A DNA stretch of 64,000 bases from positions 1-64,000 of the forward strand of contig CAWIUY010000008.1 of assembly GCA_963839375.1 (NCBI GenBank). The letters are read 5' to 3'. How positions within the stretch are numbered: position 1 is the first letter of the stretch; each line of letters opens with the position of its first letter. This DNA is from an uncultured Trueperaceae bacterium (GTDB lineage: Bacteria; Deinococcota; Deinococci; Deinococcales; Trueperaceae). The notes under the pieces were generated by a model that saw only the letters and a program-made list of their open reading frames with translations, did no database searches and had not been told where the DNA came from. Of this stretch, positions 5,465 through 9,963 are shown one piece after another. Both the position numbers and the translations under genes were made by a program.

Positions 5465-5536
5465 TCGCCTGGCCCCCGCGGCCCCAGGTCCCCCACACGG
5501 TCCCGAGCGTCCCGACGCCCACCGGCACGGGCACGG

Positions 5537-5575
5537 CGGTTTCTAGCGTCGCGCCTTTGGCGACGCTAGAAACCG
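5537..5575. terminator. 16-bp perfect inverted repeat hairpin between convergent ftsE and phosphoesterase genes, followed by a second 7-bp hairpin (5579-5600)
   Basis: CGGTTTCTAGCGTCGC-gcctttg-GCGACGCTAGAAACCG seen directly; no canonical U-tract. Confidence 0.5.
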
Positions 5576-5602
5576 CAGGTGTCGCGTCTTCCAGCGACAC
5601 AC

Positions 5603-6352
5603 CTAGACCTGCGAGATCGAGTAGTCCAGCCGGTCTTCCGAGAGGATCATCTCGACGAACTGACGGTGCGCGAGCGCGTCGATCATCGCGAAGCCGTGGT
5701 CCTTGTCGAGGTAGACGCCTTCCTTCATGACCGTGTGGCCGTAGACACCGAAGCGGTGGCCGGCGTCGCGGACCAGCTCGGGCTTCTCGTACCACCAGGT
5801 CTTGGTGTCGGGGTCGTGATAGAAGAAATCGTCGAAGTACTGCATGCCGGGCGTCGGCCCGGCGTGCGCGAAGTGGACGCCGTGGTGGACGACCTGACGC
5901 GGGAACGACACCAGCCACGCCTTCAGGTCGTCGGGCAGCTCGACGCCGCCGCGCTCGCCGCAGAACTCGTCGTGTTTCAGGCCGCCGCGCGTGCCGAGCT
6001 CGTAGTTGTGCAGCACCGCCGCCTCGTCGTGGTTGCCCAGGATCACCTGCAGGTGGCCGTTGGCCTTCTCCACGAAGTCCTTGAACCGGTACAGCTCGCG
6101 GATCTGCGCCTTGGCGGCGCGGCGCAGGTGGTCGGGGTCGACGGGGTCGTAGGTCTCGGCACCGACGGCGACCGCGTACGCACGCTCGTCCTTGTAGTGC
6201 ACCAGGTCGCCGACGCACACCACCTCGTAGCGGCCCGACAGCACGGCGTCCGTCGGCTCGTATGTCGGCGTCGCCACGGCCGCCGCGCGCAACACCCGCC
6301 ACAACTCCGCCCACATGCCATGCACGTCACCGATCGCGACGACCTTGATCAC
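5603..6352 (-). CDS. metallophosphoesterase, PPP family (ApaH/PrpE-like Ser/Thr phosphatase or diadenosine tetraphosphatase-like)
   Basis: GDVHG ... GDLV ... GNHDE ... motif order typical of calcineurin-like phosphoesterases; start overlaps upstream gene stop by 4 nt. Confidence 0.75.
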   Translation of the reverse strand: MIKVVAIGDVHGMWAELWRVLRAAAVATPTYEPTDAVLSGRYEVVCVGDLVHYKDERAYAVAVGAETYDPVDPDHLRRAAKAQIRELYRFKDFVEKANGHLQVILGNHDEAAVLHNYELGTRGGLKHDEFCGERGGVELPDDLKAWLVSFPRQVVHHGVHFAHAGPTPGMQYFDDFFYHDPDTKTWWYEKPELVRDAGHRFGVYGHTVMKEGVYLDKDHGFAMIDALAHRQFVEMILSEDRLDYSISQV

Positions 6353-7140
6353 CCGCGACCCGCCGTGCCCTCACCGGCCGGGGCCGTCAACAGCAGCTCG
6401 CGGAGGTGGGCGTAGAGCTCGCGGGCGGCCTCCGGGTCCTTGCCGTAACCGCCGTACTTGACCAGCAGGCGTGCGGCCGCCAACCCCTGCCCCTCCCCCT
6501 TGAGCCGTTCGACCAAGCGATCGATCATCTGCTGGCCCGTCGGCTTGGCCGCGTTCCCGTCGGACGGGGCCAGGACGCCCGGCGCCTGAGCGGGCTCGAC
6601 GGGCGCAGGCGGCGCGTCGTCAGCGGCCGGGCGGTCGCCCGTCGGTTCCTGGGCCGCGTTCGGTGCCGCCGTCGTCGTCGGTGCCATCGCCACAGCGGGC
6701 CCGGCGCCCCCCGGGCCCACTTCGGCGAGCCCGTCCAGGTCCGGGGGATGCAGCGGCTCGAGCGTCTCGGGGTCGCACGGCAACCAGAACGACGCGCCAT
6801 GCGGCACGGGTGGACGCAGACCCAGCAGGTCGGCGGCAGCTGCGAACGCTACGTCGGCGGTCGCCGCGGCGCCGCCGACCACGCCCGGCGCCGCGACCGC
6901 GCCTTTGGTCACGCCCTCGACGATCAGATGACACGCGACCGCCCCGCCGACCAGGCCCTCGAAGCGGACGCTCCAGCCCGCGACGCCGAGCTCGTCGTCC
7001 AGGCGCTGGCGCAGGGCGTGGGGCGTGAGGTGCGCGATCACGTGCACCGACGTGCCACCCTCCGCCACCTCGATGGGTGACCAAGCGACGACATCGAGCG
7101 GAAACGGGGCAGCCAGACGCGACCAGACGTGCGCGGACAC
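6349..7140 (-). CDS. Rad52/22-family single-strand annealing protein, DdrA-like
   Basis: N-terminal ~130 aa (RLAAPFPLDVVAWSP...HVIAHLTPHALRQRLDDELGVAGWSVRFEG...) resembles the Deinococcus DdrA / Rad52 N-terminal domain as recalled from memory; low-complexity P/A-rich linker and a C-terminal helical tail. Confidence 0.55.
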   Translation of the reverse strand: MSAHVWSRLAAPFPLDVVAWSPIEVAEGGTSVHVIAHLTPHALRQRLDDELGVAGWSVRFEGLVGGAVACHLIVEGVTKGAVAAPGVVGGAAATADVAFAAAADLLGLRPPVPHGASFWLPCDPETLEPLHPPDLDGLAEVGPGGAGPAVAMAPTTTAAPNAAQEPTGDRPAADDAPPAPVEPAQAPGVLAPSDGNAAKPTGQQMIDRLVERLKGEGQGLAAARLLVKYGGYGKDPEAARELYAHLRELLLTAPAGEGTAGRG

Positions 7141-7260
7141 GCGCGCATGCTATCACGCCCTCTGCGGCACCCCGAGAGGCGAGATTCGCGCTGTAGCCGC
7201 GACTCACCGCGCTCCGCCGGCGTGCCAGAGGCGACCCCGCGGAGCGGTAAGCTGACGCCC

Positions 7261-9963
7261 ATGACCAGTGTCCATCGCCCCGCCCGTCTCATGCTCGCCC
7301 TGCTGGCGGTGCTCGTCGCGGCGACCCTCGGCTCGACCTGGGCCCAGATCGGTCCGACCGTCGCGCTGCTCGGCCCCGACACGGTCCGGCCCGGCGATTC
7401 GGTGCGGATCGAGGTCGAAGGTCTGCCCACCGACGTCGAGCACACCCTCCGCGTGGAGGCGCCCGGCGGCGGCGAGGTGACCCGCAACGTCACCCCCGTG
7501 CAGGGCCAGGTGGCCGTCGACGTCACCTTCGACACCGTCGGCCGGCACCTCATCTGGTTCGAAGGCCCCGACTTCCAGGCGCGCTTCGCCGTGGACGTCG
7601 AGGCTCCCGTCGACGCCACGGCACCCCCCGCCGACGCGCCACCCGCGGACGCACCGGAGGCCACCTCCCCGCCTGCCCTCGCGCCACCCGCCGACAGCGC
7701 CACGCCGGTCGAACCGGACCAGCCCCAGGGCGGCCAGCCCCAGGACGCCCAGCCCCAGGGCGCCCAGCCGCGCGACGTTCAGCCGCAAGCCCAGCCCGAG
7801 GCCCAGCCCGCACCGGCGCCCGAGGCCCAGCCCGAAGGCCAGCCCGCACCCGACGCCGCACCCGAGGCCGCACCCGACGCCGCACCCGAGGCCGCACCCG
7901 CGCCCGGCGCCGAGGCACCCCTCGAACAAGCGCCCGAGGCTGCGCCCGGACCCGCCCAGGCGGCCCCACCCGAGACCGAGTCACCCGCCCAACCGGCAGC
8001 GACGAGCGCCGACCAGGTCGCCCTGCTCGTCGAGGATGACGCCGTCGTCGCGCGCGAGCCCGACGGGAGCGTGCGCTGGCGTCTGTCGTTCGCGCCCTTC
8101 ACCGGCGGGCCGCAACTGGCGCTCACCCACCTCGGCCGCGGCTGGGTGGCGGTCGGCCATCAGGTCCTCACCGTCGACCTCGCCAGCGGCGTCGTCGAGG
8201 AACGGGTGCCCACCAGCGGGACCGTGGTCGACCTCCGTCCCGTGGGGACCGGTCTCTCCGTCCTCAGCGAGGTGGTGACGCCCGACCGGCGCCTGGCCGT
8301 CGAAGCCCGCCTCGCCGATGGCACGCTCACGCCCGTGGCCGTGTTCGACCCGACCAGCACCCTGTTCGACGCGTTGGTGAACGAAGCCAACGTGGCCGAT
8401 CCGAGCGCGCGCCTGGCGCTCGACCCCACCAACCCCTTCTTGCACCTGGCGGCCGCGCGCGCCGCCGCGACCGAGACCGACCGGGAGGCCTCGATCGAGG
8501 CCGCCTTGGAAGCCGCCACCACCTTCTACGACCTCGCCCGGCTCGCCCGCGCGTTCGCCGCCCAGGGCTGGTGGGAGGCCGCCGATCGAGCGATGGCGCT
8601 CGCCGCCGCCGACTTCCGCGAGCGCGGCTACGACCCGGCGCTGCTGACCTCCGCCGAGGTCCACGAACGCTACGGTTTCCCCCTGCAACCGCTGCAGAGC
8701 GCGCTCGGGCGGGGCGACCTGGTCGCCGCCGACCTATGGGCGCGCTGGACCTACGAGCTCTCGGGCCCGCACCTCCCGGGGGCCGGCGCTGCCCTGCGCG
8801 CGTACGCCGCCGCGCTCGCCAGCGTCGACGACCGCGCCGGCGCGGCGCTCTGGCGCGAACGCGCCGGCGAGCGCACCAACCCGGTCGTCGCCGACGTGAT
8901 CGCACGCGCCGCCCTGGCGCTCGGCAACGCCGGCCGCTACGCGGTCGTGGCGCTGCTGATCGCGTTCGTGGCGCTGCACCTGACCCTCATGGCGAAGTAC
9001 GCACGGGCACGTGCGCTGGCCATCCGCCAGGCGCACGAGGCCGGGCGCCGCGTACCCGCCTGGCCCTGGACGCGGTCGATCCGCTACGACGGACTCACCG
9101 AGAAGCTGGTGCTGATCCTGCTGCTCGTCAGCGTCGTCGTGGTCGTCGCGCTCGCCGGCTGGACGCAACGCACCGATCCCGTCGCCGACCTCGTCGCGGC
9201 CGGCCACCTCGACGCGCCCGGGTTGGCCGTCTACGGTCAGGACCCGCACGCCGACCCGGTGAGCGCCGCCTGGGTGGCCGCGTACCGTGCCGATCGCGAG
9301 GGCGACCCGGACCGCGCGCTCGAGGTCCTCGAAACCGCGGGCGTGTCCAGCGACCGCGCGCTGGCGGCGGTCGCCGCCGGTGAGCCCCTGCCGGCCCCGG
9401 CGCCCCACACGGTGCGCGCGGCGGCCGGCGGGACCTGGTACGCGGCGGTCGGCGAACCCTTCCGCGACCCGTTGTCGCTGCTCGACGACGACGCACGGCT
9501 CGACGGCATCGCCCGTTGGGCGTGGCCGGCGCTGGTCGTGCTGTTGGCCCTGCTGCTGCTGATCCACGTCCTGGCGCTGTTCGTGCCGCGGCCACGGCTG
9601 GCCCGTCACGCCCCGCGCCCGCTCGGGTACCACGTGTTGGCGCTGTTGCTGCCGGGCAGTGGTCAAGCCGACGAGCTGTACGGCATCTTGCTGCTCCTCC
9701 CCTGGGCGGTGTTCGGGATCGACGTGGTGGTGCAGCTCACCGGCGGCTCGACACTGCTGGGCATCCGCTTCGGGACCGGCGTGGTCGTCCTGGCGGTGCT
9801 CTACGCCTTCAACGTCATCGCCTGGGCGGTCGAGCTGGGCTCCGTGCGCAAGCGGCACCGCGAGCTGCGCGAGACCGAGCCCGAACTGGCGCGCGCGTAC
9901 GGGTTGGCGCCGGCGCCGCGGCGTCCCAGCGAGACCATCACCGTGCCCGAGCTCGAGGGCTAA
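7261..9963 (+). CDS. large hypothetical secreted/membrane protein with a Pro/Ala/Gln-rich repeat region and C-terminal multi-TM domain
   Basis: signal-peptide-like N-terminus MTSVHRPARLMLALLAVLVAATLGSTWA; low-complexity (APEAAPDAAPEAQP...) segment ~7600-7990; several hydrophobic helices in the last ~350 aa; ATG at 7261 within ORF 7129..9963. Confidence 0.6.
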   Translation: MTSVHRPARLMLALLAVLVAATLGSTWAQIGPTVALLGPDTVRPGDSVRIEVEGLPTDVEHTLRVEAPGGGEVTRNVTPVQGQVAVDVTFDTVGRHLIWFEGPDFQARFAVDVEAPVDATAPPADAPPADAPEATSPPALAPPADSATPVEPDQPQGGQPQDAQPQGAQPRDVQPQAQPEAQPAPAPEAQPEGQPAPDAAPEAAPDAAPEAAPAPGAEAPLEQAPEAAPGPAQAAPPETESPAQPAATSADQVALLVEDDAVVAREPDGSVRWRLSFAPFTGGPQLALTHLGRGWVAVGHQVLTVDLASGVVEERVPTSGTVVDLRPVGTGLSVLSEVVTPDRRLAVEARLADGTLTPVAVFDPTSTLFDALVNEANVADPSARLALDPTNPFLHLAAARAAATETDREASIEAALEAATTFYDLARLARAFAAQGWWEAADRAMALAAADFRERGYDPALLTSAEVHERYGFPLQPLQSALGRGDLVAADLWARWTYELSGPHLPGAGAALRAYAAALASVDDRAGAALWRERAGERTNPVVADVIARAALALGNAGRYAVVALLIAFVALHLTLMAKYARARALAIRQAHEAGRRVPAWPWTRSIRYDGLTEKLVLILLLVSVVVVVALAGWTQRTDPVADLVAAGHLDAPGLAVYGQDPHADPVSAAWVAAYRADREGDPDRALEVLETAGVSSDRALAAVAAGEPLPAPAPHTVRAAAGGTWYAAVGEPFRDPLSLLDDDARLDGIARWAWPALVVLLALLLLIHVLALFVPRPRLARHAPRPLGYHVLALLLPGSGQADELYGILLLLPWAVFGIDVVVQLTGGSTLLGIRFGTGVVVLAVLYAFNVIAWAVELGSVRKRHRELRETEPELARAYGLAPAPRRPSETITVPELEG

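Follow-up and report, generated by a model that had tools for sequence, protein, structure and literature searches.

The window analysed here is the whole 64,000-nucleotide stretch of contig CAWIUY010000008.1 (assembly GCA_963839375.1, positions 1 to 64,000), which comes from an uncultured Trueperaceae bacterium and has a base composition of 69–76% GC. On its minus strand two genes, here called A and B, follow one another. Gene A (6349..7140, minus strand, GTG start) is an open reading frame (ORF) for a 263-aa protein that we assign to the DdrA family, with a Rad52 fold. Gene B (5603..6352, minus strand, GTG start) is an ORF for a 249-aa protein, a predicted ApaH-like binuclear metallophosphoesterase of the PPP family. 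Both ORFs were found exactly where a sequence-only reading of this DNA had placed them. The 4-nt overlap of stop and start codons that it had described was confirmed: in the tetranucleotide GTGA (6349..6352, minus strand) the stop codon TGA of A (6351..6349) is shared with the start codon GTG of B (6352..6350). The A protein is divided into three parts, all encoded on the minus strand: an N-terminal domain of predicted Rad52/DdrA fold with eroded DNA-groove residues (residues 1–135, 6736..7140), a P/A-rich linker of variable length that is predicted to be disordered (residues about 136–195, 6556..6735), and a C-terminal three-helix module (residues 196–252, 6385..6555) containing GQQMIDRLVERLK and GLAAARLLVKYGGYGKDPEAARELYAHLRELL. 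The start codon of A is backed by the N-terminus (M/V)S..W.RLAAPF conserved in its homologues, and the start codon of B by the conserved N-terminus MIKV.A.GDVHG. In the public annotation, the protein of A (P0001, 232 aa) begins 31 codons too late with respect to the conserved N-terminus and a promoter-like element described below. This late start cuts off the first strand of the Rad52 domain.

The two genes stay together over large evolutionary distances. We scanned one genome per species and found B in 104 species, the named taxa among which were Trueperaceae, Deinococcales, Deinococcaceae, Deinococcota and Deinococci; 80 loci were kept. A lies directly upstream of B on the same strand in 75 of these 80 loci, and one further locus ends at the contig edge. 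A second scan, with more degenerate patterns, was made in metagenomes. Here A was upstream of B in 74 of 81 loci, including deep clades whose B is only 46–52% identical to window B. Co-conservation of the pair in relatives, which the sequence-only reading presupposed, is thus borne out and extends beyond close relatives. An exact-sequence look-up placed two of the deep clades in Meiothermus and Oceanithermus; the third, called here the L091 clade (50% GC), is unplaced. In M. ruber DSM 1279, ADD27935 is a metallophosphoesterase and ADD27936 is named a 'Rad52/Rad22 family DNA repair protein'. The pair is also present in O. profundus DSM 14977. The 4-nt overlap is found in 31 of the 75 genome loci, in L091 and in many metagenome loci; the spacing is 3–99 nt in most of the other genome loci. 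Most Trueperaceae loci have the gene order argG-M-A-B-ftsE-iunH-gyrA, where M is a membrane protein gene. Within this family M-A-B, or A-B alone, persists with differing flanks (L002/L078, L069, L070, L075), and in Meiothermus, Oceanithermus and the L091 clade none of the genes flanking the pair is shared with Trueperaceae. Homologues of DdrA in Thermus have already been recorded (PMC1978522, PMC3235269). In the open-access literature we found no description of a DdrA-family gene paired with a phosphoesterase. From these sequence comparisons we consider it solid that A-B is an old, self-contained two-gene module of Deinococcota (Deinococcus-Thermus).

The relationship of A to Rad52 is not visible in a direct domain search. 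The sequence-only reading implied a match of window A to a Rad52-family hidden Markov model (HMM). The Pfam scan of window A gave nothing at E ≤ 1, so the gathering score of PF04098 is not reached, and the NCBIfam scan gave no meaningful match. Sequence and profile searches of the PDB with A and with Deinococcus DdrA also returned no matches. We found 81 close homologues of A; the source-named one is from Trueperaceae, and no full-length one has a precomputed Pfam domain. PF04098 is matched (Pfam, E ≤ 1) by 6 of 30 aligned proteins, including P0081, which carries a precomputed PF04098 annotation. Residues 7–74 of A match PHROG 1097, a family of single-stranded DNA (ssDNA) annealing proteins, at E 2.8e-6. 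A profile of 29 members of the A family, none of them Pfam-positive, was used for an exhaustive search of 1.84 billion representative proteins and retrieved 5105 proteins at E ≤ 1e-3. It turned out that 18 of 26 sampled distant matches (E about 1e-18 to 1e-36) are Pfam Rad52_Rad22 proteins; these Pfam-positive proteins were retrieved at E about 1e-19 (range 1e-18 to 1e-22). Deinococcus DdrA proteins were retrieved with a DdrA sequence used purely as bait, and 20 of the retrieved proteins were aligned. Comparison of the A family with this DdrA alignment by hhalign gave a probability of 97.9% and E 4.6e-13 over 135 aligned columns. Window A is 31% identical to one DdrA in BLASTP (E 2e-10), and the DdrA HMM matches only the A ORF within the window.

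The AlphaFold2 model of A points in the same direction. Its predicted local distance difference test score (pLDDT) is 83 overall and 87–98 in the N-domain (residues 1–135), which shows the topology beta-beta-alpha-beta-beta-beta-alpha-beta and so contains the Rad52 core, a beta-hairpin plus beta-beta-beta-alpha. Foldseek matched the model to Mgm101 (probability 1.00, E 1.4e-4) and to human RAD52 (probability 0.98); the template modelling scores, normalised to the target, are modest (0.37–0.45). In the model the linker (about residues 141–200) has a pLDDT of 48–61, and in the alignment this region is gap-rich and unconserved. The tail forms helices at residues 201–215, 219–228 and 236–252 (pLDDT 86–95). 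The P/A-rich linker and helical tail proposed in the sequence-only reading were thus found, and so was the likeness of the N-domain to Rad52 and DdrA, by profile search, hhalign, BLASTP and Foldseek alike. Profile and fold evidence together override the missing direct Pfam match, and the Rad52/DdrA homology of A therefore stands. Judged by profiles and model, A belongs to the DdrA branch of the Rad52 superfamily, and its N-domain, of putative ring type, is homologous to Rad52 and DdrA.

We then aligned the Trueperaceae A family with DdrA and with generic bacterial Rad52_Rad22 proteins and compared the residues. Where DdrA and the generic bacterial Rad52 group both have a conserved basic or aromatic residue, Trueperaceae A has lost it. 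The position of DdrA K22 is variable (D, T, R or V), that of R32 is mostly Glu, that of R42 is Asp or Glu, and that of K97 is Ala or Ser. K105 is replaced by Ala in 19 of 29 sequences; at R106, Ala is found in 11 of 29 and Arg in 5 of 29. The GRYLY hairpin of DdrA (R115, Y116, Y118), within the motif FGxGRYLY, corresponds to (R)PPxP in Trueperaceae A, mostly Pro. By the KRxxxxFG spacing, DdrA K105/R106 are the putative counterparts of RAD52 K152/R153, two residues that touch ssDNA phosphates in RAD52 (PMC13110880). The median net charge of the N-domain is −6 in Trueperaceae A versus 0 in DdrA. Residues R153/R156 of RAD52 and R193/K196 of Mgm101, located in helix alpha-3, touch the inner ssDNA strand, as do residues of the beta1-beta2 hairpin (PMC13110880). 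Trueperaceae A probably keeps the fold and not the canonical ssDNA groove. With the conserved basic and aromatic residues lost, it is unlikely that A works as a classical annealase in Trueperaceae. The term 'annealing protein' of the sequence-only reading is therefore doubtful: these residues are gone, the N-domain is acidic, and DdrA itself did not show annealing activity (PMC515370).

The best-conserved part of A is its C-terminal module, with a median identity to the window of 64% versus 38% for the N-domain. Meiothermus, Oceanithermus and the L091 clade have kept the module, including those proteins whose N-domain is cut short. Common to all is the pattern ..QELIDRL..RLKE.G.G..AA..V.KYGGYG..PE..R.LYGELRALL. 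The tyrosines Y232 and Y243 in the module of A are invariant. The match of the module to the C-terminus of DdrA in hhalign is weak and collinear (E 2.4e-3, probability 12%), which is no more than suggestive of homology. Phage single-strand annealing proteins (SSAPs) and RAD52 bind partner proteins via regions located C-terminally to the DNA-binding domain (PMC13110880). By eye, the GGYG turn of the tail resembles a helix-hairpin-helix; no family of this kind was detected, and we treat the likeness as speculation. The A proteins paired with B occur in three states. In Meiothermus the N-domain is canonical and DdrA-like (DALKRAAVKFGIGRYLY), with the KR and GRYLY motifs kept; in Trueperaceae and the L091 clade it is eroded; in Oceanithermus it is truncated.

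Some relatives of A stand in other surroundings. In locus L083 (3625..6918), a non-Trueperaceae A-like gene (P0286) is located downstream of a 112-aa ORF and is divergent from genes for a 129-aa HTH_3 protein (DdrO-like) and a 270-aa Peptidase_M78 protein (IrrE-like). A palindrome similar to the motif of the radiation/desiccation response (RDRM), TTATGCTATAACCATAA, lies at 5617..5633 in the promoter region shared by P0286 and the ddrO/irrE-like genes. P0286, P0306, P0316 and P0318 carry a Cys/His-rich extension, CPH..G.WC.L..N.KC.A..GR.GCP.P, within their N-terminal 60 residues, which has the look of a zinc-binding module joined to the Rad52 domain. In L087/L088 (2408..5099), the gene for an A-like Rad52 protein with the C-terminal module has an SNase-type nuclease gene on one side and an Xre/RES toxin-antitoxin pair on the other. 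This context is mobile element-like, and an SSAP-nuclease pair is possible there.

All members of the B family share the motifs GDVHG, GDLVH(YKD), GNHDE, (A)HAGP and GHT without change, and the seven metal-site residues (D9, H11, D49, N107, H108, H163 and H206) are invariant too. Motif II has the atypical form GDLVHYKD, where the PPP pattern is GDxx(D)R, and about 30 residues are inserted between motifs II and III. Window B has no match to Pfam Metallophos (PF00149) at E ≤ 1; 13 of 19 orthologues, which are 65–84% identical, do match it (best E 1.4e-12). The structure model of B has a pLDDT of 85 and a predicted template modelling score of 0.86, and its Foldseek matches are PPP phosphatases. 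The top structural neighbours are 1v73 and 2qjc, of the ApaH/ApaH-like group, and the fold is nearer to PPP phosphatases than to Mre11/SbcD. The best PDB sequence match is also 2qjc, a putative diadenosine tetraphosphatase. Fold and motifs agree with the PPP-family metallophosphoesterase seen in the sequence-only reading.

Two characterised enzymes, ApaH and lambda phosphatase, were compared with B by profile. The B profile aligned with E. coli ApaH at a probability of 91.5% (E 8.5e-7), and the alignment covers the first four metal-site motifs (GDVHG, GDLV, GNHD, AHAG). With lambda phosphatase the probability was 11.9% (E 2.5e-3). Against the NCBIfam ApaH model NF001204, window B scores 13.4 bits (E 0.035) and does not reach the equivalog cut-off of 176 bits. 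This model is weakly matched by 5 of 9 members of the B family (best E 0.0014) and is the commonest weak match. Weak NCBIfam matches were also seen to bacterial Pnkp (one member, E 0.047), to the 2',3'-cyclic phosphodiesterase SpdA and to PdeM. From motifs and model, B is predicted to be a catalytically complete binuclear PPP-type phosphoesterase of the branch that includes ApaH, Shelph, PnkP and lambda phosphatase. Its median identity is 74%, equal to that of GyrA (74%); the values are 38% for A and 35% for M. A tblastn search of B against 50,697 phage records found no match, and a phage origin of B was rejected on this result.

The pair appears to be transcribed as one leaderless operon. A promoter-like element of the extended −10 type, TGaTAGCAT (7147..7155, minus strand), is located 6 nt before the GTG codon with which A starts. 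Of 73 Trueperaceae loci, nearly all have the pattern TGnTAnnnT 6–8 nt ahead of this start, and the −10-like element is found before A in Meiothermus and in the L091 clade as well (loci L003–L082, L091, L097, L126, L142, L165). A conserved element at this distance from the start codon would imply a leaderless mRNA. In Deinococcus, mRNAs of this kind are common (PMC4007540). On the other side of the operon, two stem-loops follow the stop codon of B directly (5538..5600, minus strand), between the convergent genes B and ftsE; the stem of one has 7 bp and the stem of the other about 17 bp. The RNA fold of 5525..5610 (minus strand) has an energy of −45.7 kcal/mol with a z-score of −4.7, and none of 200 shuffled sequences folds as well. 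A T-tract after B is absent, and a scan for consensus terminators found nothing there. The stem-loops likely mark the end of the operon as a bidirectional terminator of a type that the consensus scan misses.

We looked upstream of A for the 17-bp RDRM palindrome of the DdrO/IrrE regulon. In the 73 loci, the window among them, the best matches have 2–4 mismatches and no fixed position, so a Deinococcus RDRM before A was rejected. Another conserved upstream box, for example GGGACGAGGAAAACCTCAT or GGGATTGTTCGCG, occurs in subsets of Trueperaceae at about −60 to −40 from the start of A (L017–L025, L031, L032, L038 and L074; also L016, L030, L042, L045 and L047). It is absent from the window and is not the RDRM; it could be a regulator site or a −35/UP region.

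Gene M (7261..9963, plus strand) is divergent from A and encodes a 900-aa membrane protein. Its N-terminal segment is signal-like, its C-terminal segments are transmembrane, and it has a region rich in P/A/Q/E; the Pfam scan found no domain in it. In most Trueperaceae loci M adjoins A, or else B in loci that lack A. Meiothermus, Oceanithermus and the L091 clade do not have M next to the pair. M was considered as part of the A-B unit and rejected, since it stands beside the pair in Trueperaceae only and has no recognisable domain; it probably lies outside the unit. In Thermaceae other neighbours are found: the order is A-B-ksgA-pfkB in Meiothermus (L142, 4766..5572) and A-B-carD-ksgA-metK in Oceanithermus (L149, 4746..6075), with ksgA (RrnaAD) on the strand of the pair. 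In E. coli, apaH sits in the cluster rsmA(ksgA)-apaG-apaH (PMC3384335). The adjacency of ksgA in Thermaceae is a hint, by analogy and independent of the protein comparisons, at an ApaH-like role of B. In the window, and in Trueperaceae generally, ksgA is not beside the pair. At the single Deinococcus ddrA locus examined, ddrA has no phosphoesterase neighbour.

The closest known counterpart of A is DdrA (DR_0423) of Deinococcus, an ssDNA-binding end-protection protein of the Rad52 family and of the same phylum. The two have homologous N-domains, and both have a helical C-terminal segment after a linker. In contrast to DdrA, window A is acidic and lacks the invariant K22, R32, R42, K97, K105, R106 and GRYLY, has a much longer P/A-rich linker and possesses an extra tail helix with the GGYG turn. 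It also has no RDRM, and it is coupled to a phosphoesterase gene, a neighbour that the one Deinococcus ddrA locus examined lacks. With Rad52/Mgm101 and the phage Rad52-like SSAPs (PF04098; PHROG 1097), A has the core fold and profile homology in common, together with the layout, in which the partner region stands C-terminally to the DNA-binding domain (PMC13110880). However, the ssDNA-contacting basic residues of helix alpha-3 and the hairpin residues of Rad52/Mgm101 (PMC13110880) are not conserved in A. Unlike phage SSAPs, A is chromosomal and syntenic, and its partner gene encodes a PPP-type phosphoesterase instead of an exonuclease. The SynExo modules (Red-beta and lambda Exo) are similar as two-gene units of an SSAP-fold protein with a C-terminal partner module and a metal-dependent phosphoesterase. 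They differ from A-B in their phage context, and A-B in turn has an eroded SSAP groove and an enzyme nearer to PPP phosphatases than to Mre11/SbcD. B shares variants of GDVHG, GDLV., GNHD and AHAG with ApaH and the ApaH-like phosphatases (ALPH, Shelph). Adjacency to ksgA is common to apaH in E. coli and to the Thermaceae orthologues of B, but apaG is absent from the A-B loci, where the gene upstream of B is one of the DdrA family. In contrast to bacterial PnkP (C. thermocellum), B is a stand-alone protein of 249 aa without a kinase or ligase domain or a Hen1 partner. Its neighbours in the window are A, M and ftsE; PnkP-type kinase/ligase modules are absent, and the likeness is one of fold only.

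On balance we lean slightly towards the following interpretation: A-B is an ancient Deinococcota operon in which B is the enzyme and A is its accessory partner with an eroded groove. A would be a subunit that targets or regulates B, through physical or functional coupling of the two proteins. The ancestral pair, which would still exist in Meiothermus, may have joined an ssDNA-binding DdrA-like ring to a phosphoesterase. In Trueperaceae, including the window, the ring would have lost its canonical DNA-groove residues, with strong constraint left only on the fold and the C-terminal module. A of the window would then probably be neither an annealase nor a classical 3'-end protector. The operon would be expressed from the extended −10 promoter as a leaderless mRNA ending probably at the stem-loops after B. 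The substrate of B would most likely be a phosphate on a nucleic-acid end or on a nucleotide. Healing of 3'-phosphate or 2',3'-cyclic phosphate ends and ApaH-like hydrolysis of dinucleoside tetraphosphates (Np4N) or Np4 caps appear about equal here, and a phosphoprotein would come third. Several findings weigh against this interpretation. Neither A nor B of the window reaches the threshold of any curated family. One Trueperaceae subclade (L037, L057, L058, L064, L104, L120) and the L094 clade have B without A; in L094, the region upstream of B was searched for an A that might be hidden or fused, and none was found. Where A is absent, B identity is 68–71%, which is not a lower conservation. Since B is equally conserved without A, it is independent of A. 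A is also found without an adjacent B in L086 and L089/L090, where Trueperaceae-like synteny is kept. Finally, the C-terminal module occurs in A-like proteins without an adjacent B (L083, L086, L087, L089), so it is not simply a B-binding domain.

The same evidence can be explained in other ways. In the model closest to the sequence-only reading, A is a functional DdrA-type protein that protects or anneals DNA ends, and B is a 3'-phosphatase or 2',3'-cyclic phosphodiesterase that cleans them. The 3' ends of ssDNA are bound and protected by DdrA of Deinococcus (PMC515370), to which A is homologous, members of the B family weakly match Pnkp, SpdA and PdeM, and the KR and GRYLY motifs are kept in Meiothermus A. 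The A-like gene of L083 beside ddrO/irrE-like genes with an RDRM-like palindrome fits as well. We nevertheless find the model doubtful. Trueperaceae A is acidic and has lost the conserved basic and aromatic residues, the pair persists in Oceanithermus despite the truncated N-domain, the RDRM was not found upstream of A in the 73 loci, and a kinase, ligase or Hen1 partner as with PnkP is absent. Moreover, annealing was not shown by DdrA (PMC515370), and the pair is conserved in Thermaceae, whose genus Thermus is described as radiation-sensitive (PMC1978522). End healing is possible above all for Meiothermus. We give no less weight to hydrolysis of nucleotides or caps by an ApaH-like B. B could be the Deinococcota counterpart of ApaH, acting on dinucleoside tetraphosphates or on Np4 RNA caps, with A regulatory or merely co-expressed; we hold this as a tentative possibility. 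It agrees with the profile match to E. coli ApaH (E 8.5e-7, compared with a probability of 11.9% for lambda phosphatase), with ApaH as the most frequent weak NCBIfam match and 2qjc as the best PDB sequence match. The orders A-B-ksgA and A-B-carD-ksgA recall rsmA(ksgA)-apaG-apaH of E. coli (PMC3384335), and B is conserved at a housekeeping level and persists without A. Against this stand the 13 bits obtained relative to a 176-bit equivalog cut-off, the motif II GDLVHYK where ApaH has GDLVARG, the roughly 30 residues inserted after motif II, the unaligned C-terminal half of ApaH and the lack of adjacent ksgA in Trueperaceae. The tight coupling to a DdrA-family gene would also stay unexplained.

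Protein phosphatase activity and pure synteny seem less likely than either. B might remove phosphate from Ser, Thr or Tyr of A or of another protein, for example in phospho-regulation of the DdrA-like ring. Tyrosine phosphorylation is reported to modulate the binding of DNA by RAD52 (PMC3160658), and Y232 and Y243 are invariant in the C-terminal module of A. We judge this improbable, as no kinase gene is linked to the pair, the B profile is weak against lambda phosphatase, the sole protein phosphatase compared, and stronger against ApaH, and B persists after the loss of A. It is also conceivable that the two genes have no functional link. Their order could be a matter of inherited synteny, or A could be what is left of a decaying prophage-type SSAP that came to lie upstream of a housekeeping gene. 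Indeed, the whole argG-M-A-B-ftsE-iunH-gyrA neighbourhood is common to most Trueperaceae, A evolves fast (38% median identity) and B does not, and one relative of A has a nuclease next to it in phage-like surroundings. A is absent from several lineages and has decayed in L074 (529..789) and L081 (5195..5752), where one internal deletion and one C-terminal truncation/frameshift were seen and B is intact. Yet the pair outlives complete flank turnover in four deep clades with B 46–52% identical to window B, and the promoter-like element is conserved, as is the overlap or short spacer. A is still intact as an ORF in about 95% of genomes, where it has invariant residues and its C-terminal module is strongly conserved, and the tblastn search found no phage relatives of B. 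We therefore regard the absence of any link as very improbable. A bolder extension goes beyond the operon with an accessory A that we favour, and we think it unlikely to hold in full: a hitherto unrecognised, phylum-wide two-component system in which a Rad52-type ring is dedicated to a PPP-family phosphoesterase. In one version, a recombination-independent combination of SSAP and end-phosphatase may heal and hold damaged DNA ends and may still operate in Meiothermus. In the other, a Rad52 ring that lost DNA binding would have been exapted as a scaffold that regulates an ApaH-like hydrolase of Np4N or caps.

DdrA is a signature 'Deinococcus-specific' repair protein, and its biochemical role beyond 3'-end protection is unsettled. 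The authors who characterised it suggested that it might need partner proteins (PMC515370). Across Trueperaceae, Meiothermus and Oceanithermus the highly conserved, ApaH-like B is locked to a DdrA-family gene, which makes it a concrete candidate for a partner of that family. The paired A proteins offer a natural series for study, with the groove intact in Meiothermus, eroded in Trueperaceae and the N-domain truncated in Oceanithermus, and the pair is present in the cultivable M. ruber DSM 1279 and O. profundus DSM 14977. B itself is an uncharacterised phosphoesterase with conservation at the housekeeping level, and it could be the ApaH equivalent of the phylum or a new end-healing enzyme. If the scaffold version is true, alarmone or RNA-cap signalling would be physically tied to a protein family of the DNA damage response.

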